Below are positions 35,607-47,607 of a stretch of DNA of 53,937 nucleotides, piece by piece; the stretch's first letter is position 1; the number at the start of each line of letters is the position of its first letter. The position numbers were made by a program, and so were the translations under genes. The notes beneath the pieces were generated by a model. It was not told where the DNA came from, made no database searches, and saw nothing but the letters and a program-made list of their open reading frames with translations. Origin of the DNA: a virus (Duplodnaviria > Caudoviricetes). The stretch covers positions 1-53,937 of the IMG/VR virus record IMGVR_UViG_3300030012_001811; one strand, given 5' to 3'.

Positions 35607-35610
35607 TTTA

Positions 35611-35713
35611 TTTCCTTTCTCAGTTAATACTCTAGTATCTCTCGTCTCTGGGCAAAAGGCAACAAAAAAATTTGAAGAAAGCAATTTTCTTTTCCTTTAA
35701 AAACAATGACTTA
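35611..35713 (-). promoter_or_regulatory. Early promoter cassette 1 (IHF-like site, TTGCCT-17-GATACT, RBS)
   Basis: Near-identical to 36887-36990; AAACAATGACTTA at 35701-35713. Confidence 0.8.
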
Positions 35714-35747
35714 TGAATGACTATGAAAAAACTTGTTTTTCTGGCCA

Positions 35748-36170
35748 TTAATTGTTGTTCCATTTATAGAAAATATGATCGTTAATTCTGACTGTTTTCT
35801 GAAGATGTTTTCTCCAAGATGGTTTTACATAATAGGCATGGTAGTGTGTTGCACCATCTGTGGTATCATAGAGCTTGCCCTGTAAAACAAGTCTGGCATA
35901 CTCCTCTGCCACGACATATGCTTCTGGATTATGGATCTCCTCTGGCTTACCATCACACCAAAAGCTGAATTGACATTTGTGTTTGATTGGTCGGTCTTTA
36001 TCCCAAGAATAATAATGCCCTTGTTTAACAACGTCACACACGCTGTCTGGGTATCTGCTGTCAGCAACCCTGTGCATTATAACTTGAGCCACTGCCACCT
36101 GTCCGACCATAGGCTCGCCACGAGCTTCAAAGTAGATCGCTGTGGCGAGACATGCGAGTGCAGTTATCAT
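35748..36170 (-). CDS. SleB-like cell wall hydrolase (Hydrolase_2)
   Basis: CLATAIYFEARGEP, CQFSFWCDGK, GATHYHA, HIFY. Confidence 0.9.
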   Translation of the reverse strand: MITALACLATAIYFEARGEPMVGQVAVAQVIMHRVADSRYPDSVCDVVKQGHYYSWDKDRPIKHKCQFSFWCDGKPEEIHNPEAYVVAEEYARLVLQGKLYDTTDGATHYHAYYVKPSWRKHLQKTVRINDHIFYKWNNN

Positions 36171-36439
36171 GCCACATCCTTTTTGCTGTAACCCATAAGT
36201 CTGAGTTGAACGGATGTTGACTCGTTAGTGTTGGCTTGGATGAACTGTCTGGAAAGCTTTGCTCTGACTGCTTTCATATCTAGAGTTTTTCTTGTGACCT
36301 CTGATACAACAACATAATGCAATTGTCCCTCGTAAACACCTGCTCCTCTGCTTTTAAGGTGATCAACAATTTTTGCTTCCTCTTCCTTGAGCTTTTGGAT
36401 CTCTGCTCTTAATGATGCTAATTTATCTATAATACTCAT
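36167..36439 (-). CDS. Small coiled-coil hypothetical protein
   Basis: GAGAAAGGAA RBS; 90 aa; directly downstream of the hammerhead. Confidence 0.75.
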   Translation of the reverse strand: MSIIDKLASLRAEIQKLKEEEAKIVDHLKSRGAGVYEGQLHYVVVSEVTRKTLDMKAVRAKLSRQFIQANTNESTSVQLRLMGYSKKDVA

Positions 36440-36458
36440 TTATTTTCCTTTCTCAATT

Positions 36459-36517
36459 TTGCTATCGCAGACCCAAAGGTTTCGGGGAGGGAGCAACCCT
36501 CCCCATCATCAGTGCGA
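36459..36517 (-). ncRNA. Hammerhead ribozyme, type I, with loop II/3'-tail pseudoknot
   Basis: Minus strand: UCGCA-CUGAUGA-U-GGGGAGGG-UUGCU-CCCUCCCC-GAAA-CC-UUUG-GG-UC^UGCGA-U-AGCAA. Confidence 0.9.
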
Positions 36518-36519
36518 AG

Positions 36520-36882
36520 TTATGCAGGATCGAACACAACACAGTTCGAGAAGTCACCAAGAACTCTAGCTTTGTACTTGTCGCCATCAATCATCACAAT
36601 CTCACCATCAACAACTGGTTCATTCTCTCTTATTCTTTTCTTCTCATCTCTGTCAGCTTGAGTGTATACAGATTTGATCATGATACTATCAGCCATCCCC
36701 CAATAGATGCCATCATCTTCTTTTTCATAACCTTGCATAAGGCAAACAGTTTTAACACTAAGATCAAAGGTTATCATCTCACCATCACCACTCATGCCTG
36801 ATCTGATGTCCTTTGGCTTAACTCTTACACCAAAAGTGTTGTCTTGATCTCCGTATCCAGTATGTTTAATTAATGTTTTCAT
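36520..36882 (-). CDS. Early hypothetical protein
   Basis: Directly after promoter cassette 2 with GAGAAAGGAA RBS. Confidence 0.78.
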   Translation of the reverse strand: MKTLIKHTGYGDQDNTFGVRVKPKDIRSGMSGDGEMITFDLSVKTVCLMQGYEKEDDGIYWGMADSIMIKSVYTQADRDEKKRIRENEPVVDGEIVMIDGDKYKARVLGDFSNCVVFDPA

Positions 36883-36886
36883 TTAC

Positions 36887-36990
36887 TTTCCTTTCTCAGT
36901 TAATACCTTAGTATCTCTCGTATTGAGACAAAAGGCAACAAAAAAATTCAAAAGAAAGTGATTTTCTTTTCCTTTAATATCAATGACTTA
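36887..36990 (-). promoter_or_regulatory. Early promoter cassette 2 (IHF site, TTGCCT-17-GATACT, RBS)
   Basis: TATCAATGACTTA at 36978-36990 matches WATCAANNNNTTR. Confidence 0.8.
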
Positions 36991-39801
36991 CGAGAGCTTA
37001 CGCCATTTTTCAACATAAATCTTTCTGAACCCTTGTTTTAAATATCCTTTTATTAAATACCAATCACCTATTTTTCCATCCTCAACTATTGGTTTGCCAA
37101 GCTTGTTATATTTAAATCTGTCAACTGTTGATATGATTGGACCAGTGTCATCCTCAAATGTCATATTCAACCAGAGATTATTGCTGTCAACCTTTCTCCC
37201 TCCTCTTTTGGCTAGGTTCACTGCCTCATTCATGTCTCTCAAGTTCTTCTCTTTGAGCTTGCCGAAAAACACATATGTTCCAGGATTGTCTGCTTCTAAG
37301 TCTTGGATCTCTATTATTGGTGTTTTAATGTTGTGTGCCAGTGGATCTGCTTTTATATGCCCAAACCTCCTCTCACACTCGAATATATCATCGTATGGTG
37401 TTTCTCCATTGTCTAAAAGCTTTTCCTGTCTGGGTGTTAGTGGTTGCTTCAATTCACGTCTGTTTATAATGTCTTCAGCCATTTTTGGACCAACACCTTT
37501 TATCCCTATCAAGCCACCGATGAGTTCACCATTTTGAACTGACCAATTCATGCCAGACCTATATTTATCATATGACTTGTATCCCAAACCCTCTTTTGAT
37601 ACTTCTCTCAAAAGCCTTACACCTTGATCATCATCCTTAACATTCCTGAGACATGCTGCAGCAAACTCCAATGGAAACCTACTCTTGAGCACACAACACC
37701 AGTAGCTGACCAACCCATAGGCAATAGCATGACTTCTGTTAAATGCCCACGATCCCATTGTGTTAATATTTTTCCATATGGTCTGTGCTTGATCTTCATC
37801 AATACCATTTTCAATGGCACCAACTTTAAACTTCTGCCAGTAGCCATCAAAGAACTCCTCACCAAGAGATTTACTCATGGCTTTGCGCAACTGAGACACA
37901 TCCTCCCAACTGAGCTTGCCAACATCCCTAGCAATGTTCATAACTTGCTCCTGATAAACAACAACACCATAAGTAACTTTTGTTATGTCCTCAGTCATTG
38001 GGTGTAAATATTCCACTGGTTTTTCACCGATCTTCCTCTTGATATATTGAGTTGTACCACCAGAGTTCAATGGTCCAGGACGAGCCAAAGCAGTTATTGA
38101 TGCAATGTCTTCAAAATTATGAACTTTCATCTGCCTAGTCAAAGACTGCAGTGCGTAACCCTCAAACTGGAATATGCCTGCATACTTTTCATCATTCAAC
38201 AGCTCAAAAGCTTTTTCATCATCCAATGGGTGCTTTAATAATTTTTCTCTGCTCCATCCTATCTGATCAAGAACATCTTGCAAAACTGACAATGTTCTCA
38301 AACCCAAAGCATCAATTTTTAATAAGTTCAGATCCTCAGCATCTTTTTTGTCTATCTGTGCTGCACCTGTTTGACCAGAAACAGAACAGTAAAGACTGAC
38401 TGGATCCTCTGTTATTATAATCCCTGCTGCATGAACACCATTGTGTCTGGCATGGTTCTCCATATCTGCAGCAACTCTCATTTGCGGATACTTTTCTAAG
38501 ATCTGCTTTCCAATGTCAAGATCGTTGAATGTGTCAAGTATGCAAAATGCTGCACGGGAATCACCACCACTCCTCTCAATGATAGCACCTTTTAAGTCAT
38601 TGACCTCCCATGCTGGTATTCCAAGTTCTTTCGCAACTTCTGATATAGTTGATTTTGCTTTGTATCTTGACACTGTTCCTAGATGGGCAACTTTTTCTGC
38701 ACCATACTTTTGCCTGATGTATTCAAAGACCATCTCTCTGCGATCATCTTGAAAGTCGATATCTATGTCTGGCAGATCTGCCCTAGTAATATCAATAAAT
38801 CTTTCGAACAGTAAGTCATGCTCTATCGGATCAATGTCTGTTATGCCAATCAGATAGCAAACCAATGACCCAGCACTGGATCCACGAGCTGGACCAACAA
38901 GCATATGTTCCTTGGCATAGTTTATCATGTCTGCTATAACATAAAAATAATCCTCAAAATCTTTATCAGCTATCAGTTTTAACTCCCTGTCCAACCTTGC
39001 TTTGTAAACAGGATCGCTAAGATCTATCTCTCTTGGCTTTGCTCCCTCGACACACATTTGTCTCAAAGTCTTATCAGAATGAAATGATATCATTTGAGCA
39101 GTTGGCAAATCAACATTACAATCCAAAGCTATTTTATATGTCATGTCTATTGCTTCTTGTGGTGCCCATGGCAAAGCATCTTTCCATTCCCACTCATTAA
39201 GTATATGCATTGGCGCAGTTCTATCTTGTCTGTTCCTGCCAACTAACACCTCATATGCTTTTTTGTCTTCTGGCTTTGGATAATAATTATCAGAGGTGGC
39301 AACAAAATTAAATCCTTTCTCTTCAGCCCATTTAAAATTATTTTTAGTTGTCATGGGATTGATCTCGAAATACATATCATCTTTTTTGGCCAAAGGAAGC
39401 AATCCTAGTATTGGATGCGTTCCTGTCAATATTATTATGTTTTTGCTGATATCAAAAAGGTGCTCATAGCTTAATCTTGGATGATAATAAAAATGATCTT
39501 TGTCTGTGCTTTTTGTCACTAGTTGATAAAGCTCTCTCAAGCCATCATTGTTTTTGGCTATGAATGTCATCTCATTTGTTGGTTGTTTGGATCTCTCTGT
39601 TGCATCCTCAACTATTGGTATCTCAACTCCAAACAAAGGTTTCTTTCCTGCTTTCTTACAAGCCTTGCTGAAAGCAACATGACCCCATGTTCCAGAGTCA
39701 GATATGCCCATGACATCACCTTCTGTTGTCTCAACAACTTTATGGATTGGTCCGAAAGCTTTTCGGAAAGAATATTCTGATCTCAAACGAACATTTATCA
39801 T
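36988..39801 (-). CDS. dnaE: DNA polymerase III alpha subunit (family C)
   Basis: GPARGSSAGSLVCY, PDIDIDF, GVHAAG, KIDALGL, GIFQFE, LARPGP, FNRSHAIAY. Confidence 0.96.
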   Translation of the reverse strand: MINVRLRSEYSFRKAFGPIHKVVETTEGDVMGISDSGTWGHVAFSKACKKAGKKPLFGVEIPIVEDATERSKQPTNEMTFIAKNNDGLRELYQLVTKSTDKDHFYYHPRLSYEHLFDISKNIIILTGTHPILGLLPLAKKDDMYFEINPMTTKNNFKWAEEKGFNFVATSDNYYPKPEDKKAYEVLVGRNRQDRTAPMHILNEWEWKDALPWAPQEAIDMTYKIALDCNVDLPTAQMISFHSDKTLRQMCVEGAKPREIDLSDPVYKARLDRELKLIADKDFEDYFYVIADMINYAKEHMLVGPARGSSAGSLVCYLIGITDIDPIEHDLLFERFIDITRADLPDIDIDFQDDRREMVFEYIRQKYGAEKVAHLGTVSRYKAKSTISEVAKELGIPAWEVNDLKGAIIERSGGDSRAAFCILDTFNDLDIGKQILEKYPQMRVAADMENHARHNGVHAAGIIITEDPVSLYCSVSGQTGAAQIDKKDAEDLNLLKIDALGLRTLSVLQDVLDQIGWSREKLLKHPLDDEKAFELLNDEKYAGIFQFEGYALQSLTRQMKVHNFEDIASITALARPGPLNSGGTTQYIKRKIGEKPVEYLHPMTEDITKVTYGVVVYQEQVMNIARDVGKLSWEDVSQLRKAMSKSLGEEFFDGYWQKFKVGAIENGIDEDQAQTIWKNINTMGSWAFNRSHAIAYGLVSYWCCVLKSRFPLEFAAACLRNVKDDDQGVRLLREVSKEGLGYKSYDKYRSGMNWSVQNGELIGGLIGIKGVGPKMAEDIINRRELKQPLTPRQEKLLDNGETPYDDIFECERRFGHIKADPLAHNIKTPIIEIQDLEADNPGTYVFFGKLKEKNLRDMNEAVNLAKRGGRKVDSNNLWLNMTFEDDTGPIISTVDRFKYNKLGKPIVEDGKIGDWYLIKGYLKQGFRKIYVEKWRKLS

Positions 39802-45466: not shown

Positions 45467-46047
45467 ACCAATTCAACCCTTCCTTTTTTAAGATCGTGAG
45501 CAACATCTTCTCTCACTCCAGCTTTTAAGATGTCGAACTCTTTTGACTTCTCGATCAACAGCTCATAATTGATCCCACCTTTGTTAGCCATGATGATCTC
45601 AAAAATGTGCCAAGCACGAGTGCCAGTCTTTCTAGGATTTTCCTTGACAACAGCTTTTACCACCTTGTCATAAAAAGCACCTCTCCCTCTGGAGACCTTT
45701 GCATCATCCTTGATGATCTTGGCAACAGTGGGTGCATTCTTTTTTGCGAAGTCGCTGATCTTGGATCCATTCCAACGAGTTGATGCCACTGGCACATCCA
45801 TGCCATTTATAAGATTAAATAATCTGACACCACCTTTTGCTTTGTCAGAAAACCTGCTGACAGGCTTTTTGGAGTACTTGTTATATATCTCTGCTAGCTT
45901 TGCAGTGGATACATTAACATTGTTGTAGATCTCGAGTGCACTAGAAAAATGGAGAGATCCATTTTGCATAACCTCAGCAACATCTCTGCTAACGTAGGCT
46001 TTCACTTCAAGAGTTTTTAAGTCGATTGAATAACATTTGTCTAACAT
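45463..46047 (-). CDS. Early hypothetical protein
   Basis: ATG 46047 after GAGAAAGGAA; C-terminal ENPRKTGTRAW segment. Confidence 0.72.
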   Translation of the reverse strand: MLDKCYSIDLKTLEVKAYVSRDVAEVMQNGSLHFSSALEIYNNVNVSTAKLAEIYNKYSKKPVSRFSDKAKGGVRLFNLINGMDVPVASTRWNGSKISDFAKKNAPTVAKIIKDDAKVSRGRGAFYDKVVKAVVKENPRKTGTRAWHIFEIIMANKGGINYELLIEKSKEFDILKAGVREDVAHDLKKGRVELV

Positions 46048-46051
46048 GATT

Positions 46052-46140
46052 TTTTCCTTTCTCAGTATCAATAGAGATTAGTATGTCTTATTTTTTGCAA
46101 AAAGAAAAGGATTTTCTTTCCCTTTAAAATCAAACACTTA
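46052..46140 (-). promoter_or_regulatory. Early promoter cassette 3 (IHF site, TTTTCT-17-CATACT, RBS)
   Basis: AATCAAACACTTA at 46128-46140; ACTGAGAAAGGAA shared with the other cassettes. Confidence 0.7.
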
Positions 46141-46143
46141 ACA

Positions 46144-47607
46144 TCATAATGCATAATAACGCAATCCTCTGGGTCTCATAATATACAAATTTTCTTTTGC
46201 TCTGGTGACAGCAACATACCAAACTCTGTTCTCTTCATCGGTGTGAGAGTTCTCCCAACTTAATCTCCCCATGTCAGTCGCCAATGCAACATTGTCTGCC
46301 TCACCACCTTTACTCTGATGGATCGTTGATATAACTATCCTAGGCTTGTCGCTGAATTTTTCTCCATTGCGCAAACAGGATCTCAGATACTCTCTTTCAT
46401 CTGGTGCTATGCCTCTCAACATTCTCATCCAATCGTAGTTCCTTGCCTCTTCTGGCAAACCGAAGTCACTTAAATTATAAACATCTTTGTTTTTTAATTT
46501 TATATTGGATCCAAAAAACTGAATCATATTTTTTGCTTCGAACAAAGTTATGCCTTTGCCCTTCCTGACTTTCTCCCATGAGGTGATGGCACGAGTTTCA
46601 TCTGACTCAAGAGAGTGCTGACCATTGTAGAGATATCCATAACCTTGTTGACGAGCAACTTTCTGAAAACGATTTAAAAGATATTTTGACCGACTCATAC
46701 ACAACCATGTTTTCTGGTCAGAAAAATCTATCTGCTGTTCATCAGCCAAATGCTCAACCATGCCGACCTCTGTTTTTGGACTCCATGGTTTCATATATCT
46801 TTTCTTAATCCTCTTGACAATGTCAGATGCGATGTTGTGAACAGATCTTGGTATCCTATAACTTTGTGGCAAGATATGCCTGTCACCTTTTAAGCTTAAA
46901 AATTTATTCACATCAGCTCCAGCCCAACCAAAGATAGCTTGGTCATCATCACCTGCAATGTAAACCTCTTGTGCCTCAGATGATAAACTGATGGCCATCT
47001 TGTATTGCAAAGAACTCAGATCCTGTGCCTCATCAAATATACAAATGTCCACTGGCAGAGGTGAATTGTATCTCTCCAACATGTCTGTGAAATCCAAAAG
47101 ACCATTTTCTTTTTTGTAAACTCTCAATGCAGAGTCGTATTGCTTAACTGCATGCAAAGTCAAATCATCAACATTGGAATAATTATATTGTTGCTCAACA
47201 GATCTTATGCCAACCCTAGCGAGTGACTCAATCCGTGAGCACTTGTCTCCAAGTCCATAGCCAGTATGGATCCCGAGATCCTCGTCATAGATTCCTTTGA
47301 ACTCAACTCCCAGAGCTTTGCCTAAACTCCTGTAATGCGTATTTGTCATCACCTCATCTCTCTGCAAGCCTAACTGTTTGAAAGCAAGAGAGTGCAAAGT
47401 TCTAAAATATGGAAACCTACTCTCATCAAAACCGAACTGCACCATTGCTCTTTCTTGTGCTTCATATGCAGCTTTCCTAGTGAAAGCAAGATATGCTATT
47501 TTTTCAGGAGCCACTCCCCTCTTCAGACTGCTCTCCACTATCTTCAGCAGAGTTGTTGTCTTTCCTGTTCCTGGTGGTCCCAGTATTATCTGGACAAACC
47601 TTTTCAT
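46144..47607 (-). CDS. UvrD/Rep-like SF1 helicase
   Basis: GPPGTGKT, DEAQD, GDDDQAIF, STIHQSKGGE, YVAVTRAK. Confidence 0.93.
   Translation of the reverse strand: MKRFVQIILGPPGTGKTTTLLKIVESSLKRGVAPEKIAYLAFTRKAAYEAQERAMVQFGFDESRFPYFRTLHSLAFKQLGLQRDEVMTNTHYRSLGKALGVEFKGIYDEDLGIHTGYGLGDKCSRIESLARVGIRSVEQQYNYSNVDDLTLHAVKQYDSALRVYKKENGLLDFTDMLERYNSPLPVDICIFDEAQDLSSLQYKMAISLSSEAQEVYIAGDDDQAIFGWAGADVNKFLSLKGDRHILPQSYRIPRSVHNIASDIVKRIKKRYMKPWSPKTEVGMVEHLADEQQIDFSDQKTWLCMSRSKYLLNRFQKVARQQGYGYLYNGQHSLESDETRAITSWEKVRKGKGITLFEAKNMIQFFGSNIKLKNKDVYNLSDFGLPEEARNYDWMRMLRGIAPDEREYLRSCLRNGEKFSDKPRIVISTIHQSKGGEADNVALATDMGRLSWENSHTDEENRVWYVAVTRAKENLYIMRPRGLRYYAL

Follow-up and report, generated by a model that had tools for sequence, protein, structure and literature searches.

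Hammerhead ribozymes are found flanking genes of phages and prophages, and the text of Perreault et al. 2011 (PMC3088659) proposes that they process long transcripts there. According to the same text, pseudoknots occur in all three hammerhead types, in about 40% of the representatives, and are needed for fast cleavage. Insertions in the core are also on record. The plus-strand hammerhead of the chrysanthemum chlorotic mottle viroid carries one additional nucleotide, A10, between A9 and G10.1 (De la Pena and Flores 2001, related in PMC3705267), and in the account given there an exchange of A10 for U made trans-cleavage 3-4 fold faster, whereas C or G were harmful. A further relative, RAGATH-1 or the PK hammerhead (RF03152), is described in PMC11300833 as having stem II reduced to a loop that is pseudoknotted with an extra stem-loop joined to helix I. 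As to what genomic hammerheads do for their owners, a 2019 review (PMC6765202) states that more work is needed.

The window analysed here takes in the entire IMG/VR record of an uncultured marine phage, 53,937 bases with an estimated completeness of 99%. An 80-nt spacer between genes for a 120-aa and a 90-aa protein holds a complete type I hammerhead, on the minus strand at 36517-36459. It resembles the phage hammerheads of Perreault et al. 2011, as described in the text of that paper, in its core, its three-stem junction and a Watson-Crick pseudoknot between the stem I and stem II sides, and like them it lies between phage genes, with flanking genes that are not constant and a proposed role in cutting transcripts (PMC3088659). 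Unlike the elements described in the text of that paper, it is one of a subfamily in which A9 is followed by an extra U. The one-nucleotide insertion of the viroid hammerhead is at the same place in the core, to judge from PMC3705267, and the inserted U fits this literature, in which insertion at that position is tolerated. The viroid ribozyme differs in being of type III, in serving rolling-circle replication and in having loop-loop contacts instead of a pseudoknot. With RAGATH-1, as presented in PMC11300833, the window element shares the hammerhead core and the engagement of the stem II side in a pseudoknot. Unlike RAGATH-1, however, it has a full 8-bp hairpin as stem II, of which only the 5-nt loop pairs, with a single-stranded 3' tail; its architecture is not that of RF03152, and 221 nt around the element gave no RF03152 match at E up to 10. 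By its core and junction it is of the same class as the Rfam clan CL00010 (Hammerhead_1, Hammerhead_3, Hammerhead_II, HH9 and HH10), although no model of the clan reports it at E up to 10. The window element is a genuine hammerhead and a new representative of the phage class that has been known since 2011.

Anatomy and gene neighbourhood

Read on the minus strand, the element has the order UCGCA CUGAUGA U GGGGAGGG UUGCU CCCUCCCC GAA ACC UUUG GGU C UGCGA U AGCAA. Stem I consists of five pairs between its 5' strand UCGCA (36517-36513) and its 3' strand UGCGA (36469-36465), the latter placed by sequence, fold and covariation. The core CUGAUGA, positions C3 U4 G5 A6 U7 G8 A9 (36512-36506), occupies columns that are invariant in 26 members of the family, and is followed by the extra U (36505), read from the sequence between A9 and G10.1. 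Stem II, recognised by sequence and fold, pairs GGGGAGGG with CCCUCCCC over 8 bp (36504-36497 with 36491-36484) and encloses loop II, UUGCU (36496-36492). The second part of the core, GAA (G12 A13 A14, 36483-36481), is likewise invariant in the family. It leads into stem III, in which A15.1-C-C pairs with G-G-U16.1 over 3 bp around a UUUG loop (36480-36478 with 36473-36471), again by sequence and fold. From the hammerhead consensus the cleavage site is predicted behind the triplet GUC, after C17 (36470) and before U1.1 (36469). A single linker U (36464) then separates stem I from the 3' tail AGCAA (36463-36459), which is the exact complement of loop II and its partner in the pseudoknot. All consensus positions of the hammerhead are present, including the pairs G10.1-C11.1 and A15.1-U16.1; the triplet conforms to the N-U-H rule, in which H is not G, and the topology is that of type I, with stem I open and stems II and III closed by loops.

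The right-hand part of the window has its genes on the minus strand, and the neighbours of the ribozyme are replication genes. A DnaE-type polymerase (36988-39801, minus strand) lies upstream of the 120-aa gene (36520-36882, minus strand), which belongs to no Pfam or PHROG family and whose TAA stop codon (36522-36520) ends 2 nt before stem I. On the other side, the ribosome-binding site GAGAAAGGAAA of the downstream cistron (36444-36454, minus strand), a motif that recurs before other genes of the window, is outside the ribozyme and unpaired in the predicted 3' product. The 90-aa protein, also without a family, is encoded at 36167-36439 on the minus strand with its start codon 30 nt after the predicted cut, and is followed on the same strand by a SleB-type cell-wall hydrolase of 140 aa (35748-36170; PF07486, E = 4.8e-27; phrog_938 endolysin, E = 4.1e-24). 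Next in order come a DUF6011 protein and a SNF2 helicase gene. An earlier note on this DNA, made from the letters alone, had placed the ribozyme between the stop of the 120-aa gene and the ribosome-binding site of the 90-aa gene, with a SleB hydrolase further downstream, and both the placement and the downstream genes are right; the coordinates that it gave for the parts of the ribozyme are all correct to the base when read on the minus strand.

Some further features of the neighbourhood can be mentioned. The SleB-type hydrolase, endolysin-like by PHROGs, is located among replication genes, and its start codon shares bases with the stop of the 90-aa gene (ATGA), a sign that the two may be translationally coupled. 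The GC skew changes sign near 30-35 kb, which fits two divergent or convergent gene blocks (1-30000 versus 33000-53937), and the ribozyme is placed in the minus-strand block with the replication genes.

An intergenic module of about 110 nt is repeated on the minus strand at 36883-36995, 35607-35720 and approximately 46040-46150 (D1, 125 nt, 73% identity). It contains an A+T-rich hairpin with a T-run, a conserved box (TTGTTGCCTTTTG ... GATACTAA) and a ribosome-binding site CTGAGAAAGGAAA, and it may represent a terminator plus a promoter. The copies at 36883-36995 and 35607-35720 bracket the three-gene unit that holds the ribozyme. By this arrangement the modules are likely to be transcript boundaries, with the copy at 36883-36995 as the likely start of the three-gene unit.

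Folding, family and covariation

Folded as a stretch of 68 nt, the element gives exactly the three-way junction as its minimum free energy structure (-24.6 kcal/mol, z = -2.7, with 3 of 200 shuffles equally stable). Our own type I descriptor, which asks for the core, 0 or 1 inserted base and three stems, found a single site when both strands of the window were scanned. Dinucleotide-preserving shuffles of the window, 300 in number, gave 142 loose matches, only one of which was as good as the real site, that is with at least 5 bp in stem I, at least 6 in stem II and at least 3 in stem III. In 596 billion bases of reference prokaryote genomes, a pattern of sequence only (the core and U-G, followed by C-GAAACC and by GGUC) occurred 98 times, never with 4 bp or more in both stem I and stem II, so that the pairing does not simply follow from the letters of the motif. 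These two controls make a chance motif unlikely, and we rejected it. An intrinsic terminator was rejected as well, the hairpin having no T-run behind it and the terminator scan being empty at the site. In a context of 211 nt, the minimum free energy fold retains stem II while the sequences of stems I and III pair elsewhere; this fold has a frequency of 0.0002, and stem II is the one part kept throughout a diffuse ensemble. We gave the result no weight as evidence, since pseudoknots, ribosomes and co-transcriptional folding are all outside what the program models.

Relatives were collected from viral contigs with two patterns. The first fixed only the core, C-GAAACC and GGUC, and placed no demand on stem I or on the interior of stem II; it matched at least 120 viral loci, and among the matches listed 61 had a full type I hammerhead. 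The second fixed the core, loop II, GAAA, UC and the tail, and left every stem free. It gave 22 matches in 20 viral loci, and all 22 had stem II with 8 of 8 pairs and stem I with 5 of 5. The nearest relative, L001, with an upstream protein of 90% identity, has this element as well, altered in stem II by two compensatory changes.

For the analysis of covariation we aligned 26 distinct members of regular geometry (alignment A2). Left out were three members with different loop lengths (L150, L160 and L185), three that differ from retained rows in the flanks only (L169, L170 and L229a) and six canonical-core members that MAFFT misaligned. Standard pairs make up 99.1% of the 546 cells, and 37-51% after a shift of the partners by 1-3 columns, although for stems I-III such percentages are partly circular, the rows having been picked by a descriptor that demands stems. 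Both sides have changed in 16 of the 21 pairs, and the observed covariation score was reached by none of 500 shuffles, a control that overstates the significance in that many rows are close kin. The fairer evidence is in the counts that were blind to the pairing: stems I and II complete in 22 of 22 matches, and the loop II-tail helices in 27 of 53 hammerheads that are treated below. Distributed over the helices, the changes on both sides concern five of five pairs in stem I, seven of eight in stem II, three of five in the pseudoknot and one of three in stem III, which is the least tested, its ACC/GGU having been fixed in the first search pattern. The pairs G10.1-C11.1 and A15.1-U16.1 are invariant across the 26 members.

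The pseudoknot was assessed in 53 distinct hammerheads, among the matches listed, at loci that the first pattern had picked out regardless of loop II and tail. In 27 of them loop II can form a helix of four or more Watson-Crick pairs with the 12 nt that follow stem I, compared with a mean of 9.3 and a maximum of 17 in 1000 permutations of loops and tails. Among the matches listed, 15 of the 16 members with an extra nucleotide have such a helix. Loop II and tail switch together through six sequence types, including UUGCU/AGCAA, UAGUU/AACUA, UGAUU/AAUCA, UGGUU/AACCA and UGGCU/AGCCA, and coordinated changes of this kind are the pattern of a functional tertiary contact. The pseudoknot between loop II and the 3' tail, proposed in the earlier note, thus finds support in compensatory switching within the family, and the type I identity claimed there is borne out by the relatives, with their invariant core and their compensatory changes in stems I, II and III.

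Of the 53 distinct hammerheads among the matches listed, 16 have a base inserted after A9, which is U in 15 and A in one. In alignment A2 the extra position is U in 24 of the 26 members, A in one and absent in one. The hammerhead of a plant satellite RNA has a U at the same inserted position.

A covariance model built from the family (R1) found one copy in the whole window with filters off, at 89.9 bits; there is no second copy by this model, the next best score being 10.1 bits. On other contigs, several family members come in pairs that flank one or a few small genes. L153 has two copies 447 nt apart, L155 and L156 lie about 1.1 kb apart on one contig, and L229 has two copies 1.3 kb apart, which is the clustered arrangement described in 2011. 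On the L219 contig, a sibling ribozyme without the extra U and with the triplet GUA (L219:2436-2502) is found about 0.9 kb from an extra-U copy, and two core forms thus coexist in one phage.

The Rfam library and the known distribution

The check that the earlier note had named, an Infernal search with the Rfam hammerhead models, turned out negative. Rfam 15 gave no hammerhead match in the whole window at gathering score, and none in 221 nt around the element at E up to 10. A permissive search of 19 family loci shows how the library treats its siblings: none of the 10 other extra-U members was matched, and six canonical-core siblings reached 20.6-29.5 bits on HH9, for which the gathering score is 52. 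A natural sibling without the extra U scored 23.7 bits on RAGATH-1 (gathering score 56.3), the extra-U copy in the same locus giving nothing. Since extra-U siblings are missed and canonical siblings score low, the silence of Rfam reflects the library and not the element, and after these sibling controls we rejected the miss as evidence against the ribozyme. The extra-U pseudoknotted type I subfamily lies outside the current Rfam library, and routine annotation of marine phage genomes will miss it.

Searched with the two patterns, and against 185,579 reference prokaryote genomes, the extra-U subfamily was found only in uncultured viral contigs. The UUGCU/AGCAA pattern had no match in the reference prokaryote genomes, and the looser pattern of sequence only had none with both stems, so that these genomes point to no bacterial host or prophage. 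The region 35700-37000, compared as DNA with 50,697 phage records, was without a match, and a protein search with the DnaE-type polymerase returned only distant isolates, with at most 44.5% identity.

Sequencing runs containing this locus number 20 as listed, and nearly all are DNA; four of them (X19-X22) were examined as assembled contigs, which are few in X19 and X20 and do not cover the locus in X21 and X22. A contig from X20, a run that is only guessed to be RNA, bridges the cut site (36094-36506), and one from X19 covers 36328-36478, reaching only 9 letters past the site, but contigs cannot show RNA ends. A contig from X20, which is a seawater run, departs from the window at 36518, just upstream of the ribozyme, and continues as in L001. 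A variant with the longer upstream gene end hence occurs in another sample.

Predicted self-cleavage and its possible uses

We regard it as highly probable that the element, a type I hammerhead with an extra U, an 8-bp stem II and a 5-bp pseudoknot, cleaves itself within a message of three genes. That message, with the 120-aa protein, the 90-aa protein and the SleB-type hydrolase, would be transcribed with the ribozyme inside, the pseudoknot would hold stem I alongside stem II, and self-cleavage would take place after C17 (36470). In hammerhead chemistry the 2'-OH of C17 attacks the next phosphate. The upstream message would thereby be left with a 2',3'-cyclic phosphate end directly behind the hairpins of stems II and III, and the downstream message with a 5'-OH and an unstructured leader of 30 nt that carries the ribosome-binding site, after which each half could have its own decay and its own translation. 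A 5'-OH at 30 nt from the start codon, which the earlier note had suggested, is what this chemistry would give, provided that the element cuts. In the fold of the predicted 3' product the leader is essentially unstructured and the ribosome-binding site is free. The site is unpaired also in the fold of the uncut RNA, so that the cut probably acts via separate decay of the two halves and not by unmasking translation. Judged from its sequence and those of its relatives, the ribozyme probably splits a shared message in two. Intercistronic mRNA processing is the most likely role, a reading that matches the proposal made for gene-flanking hammerheads of phages and prophages in the text of PMC3088659.

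The main use of the cut could instead be a protected 3' end for the upstream gene, and not the freeing of the downstream gene. The upstream RNA would end one base behind stems II and III and resist 3' exonucleases as the RNA from a terminator does, with transcription continuing past it. It is in keeping with this that homologues of the 120-aa gene in the more distant relatives L002 and L003 (61-63% identity) have a plain G+C-rich hairpin (GGGGGCTTCGGCCCCC, GGGGGTTAATAGCCCCC) in place of the ribozyme (L002:1089-1130 and L003:1033-1075), and that cutting is not needed to expose the downstream ribosome-binding site, which is unpaired either way. Of 20 distinct copies of the ribozyme, four (the window, L001/L220, L213 and L224) are preceded by a member of the 120-aa family, and the genes that come after the ribozyme are different ones in L213 and L224. 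In L214, however, the 120-aa family is found downstream of the ribozyme instead, and the proteins flanking the 20 distinct copies fall into 26 clusters. A protected end is also compatible with intercistronic processing, because one cut makes both ends. As the main use of the ribozyme we consider it possible, though rather improbable.

Another possibility is that cleavage is gated by translation. When a ribosome terminates, it protects roughly a dozen bases on the 3' side of the stop codon. At this locus it would cover stem I and the core and delay folding and cutting, and we think this unlikely; that the ratio of joined to split message would in this way be tied to the ribosome traffic on the upstream gene is equally doubtful. 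The spacing is suggestive. An upstream open reading frame of 48-205 codons stops 1-2 nt short of stem I in the window and in 21 of the 22 close copies; the start codon that follows (of a frame of at least 35 codons) is 25-41 nt past the predicted cut in the copies, compared with 30 nt in the window. In the wider family, the stop of a frame of at least 50 codons falls within -3 to +6 nt of stem I in 23 of 46 members, but the other half has no close stop, with the stop further from stem I in 12 and no such frame within reach in 11. Compact phage genomes, moreover, give tight spacing without any regulation.

The element could also be a portable intergenic cassette, spread by recombination among marine phages and of little use to its carrier, a passenger, selfish or neutral, whose cutting of RNA would be incidental. 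Its distribution is patchy in the way that this would demand. It is present in the window and in L001 and missing from L004 and L005, where the 90-aa and hydrolase genes are the same (83-85% identity), the upstream gene is another one and the spacer is without a hammerhead, and none of five near-complete related genomes that share the hydrolase gene carries it when searched with R1. Near-identical copies stand between unrelated gene pairs, as the 26 clusters around 20 copies indicate, and R1 found one or two copies in each of five carrier contigs. Against a passenger speak the loci that we read, with no repeats, target duplications or mobility genes beside the element, and also the strict core and the compensatory pairs, which argue for selection on cleavage activity. 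We find a mere passenger quite improbable. By the gene content of L004, L005 and the five near-complete genomes, the ribozyme is dispensable for the downstream genes, which is a point against intercistronic processing. The spacer of L004 (885-940), like that of L005, contains a small hairpin, TGAGCA ... TGCTCA.

That only the G+C-rich hairpin of stem II is functional, in RNA stability or pausing, with a fortuitous hammerhead core, is extremely unlikely in spite of the bare hairpins of L002 and L003, the location of both compensatory changes between the window and L001 in stem II and the retention of stem II alone in the 211-nt fold, since the core is invariant in 26 members while stems I, II and the pseudoknot covary, stem I is fully paired in all 22 blind matches, the complementarity of loop II and tail changes in step through six sequence types, and the hairpin has no T-run and no call in the terminator scan.

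There is also an artificial counterpart to an arrangement of this kind. In RiboJ-type insulators, which are synthetic parts derived from a plant satellite RNA, a hammerhead just upstream of the ribosome-binding site trims away upstream RNA and leaves a defined leader with a 5'-OH. Unlike these parts, the window element is natural, belongs to a phage and stands between cistrons. One could imagine that the unit of stop codon, ribozyme, leader with ribosome-binding site and start codon is a portable natural insulator of marine phages, with translation-gated cutting and a hairpin-protected upstream 3' end, but we would not expect this to be the case. If it were, the ratio of split to joined message would report the ribosome traffic on the upstream gene, and the protected upstream 3' end would take the place of the plain hairpin of the relatives.

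Returning to intercistronic processing, the window offers a very regular example, with a single ribozyme in a three-gene unit that is apparently bracketed by repeated modules. The value of the locus is also in the regular layout from stop codon over ribozyme and ribosome-binding site to start codon, and in the annotation gap; beyond these it is an ordinary member of the class described in 2011. The close relatives that do without the ribozyme in the same spacer make a natural comparison of this gene unit with and without it.
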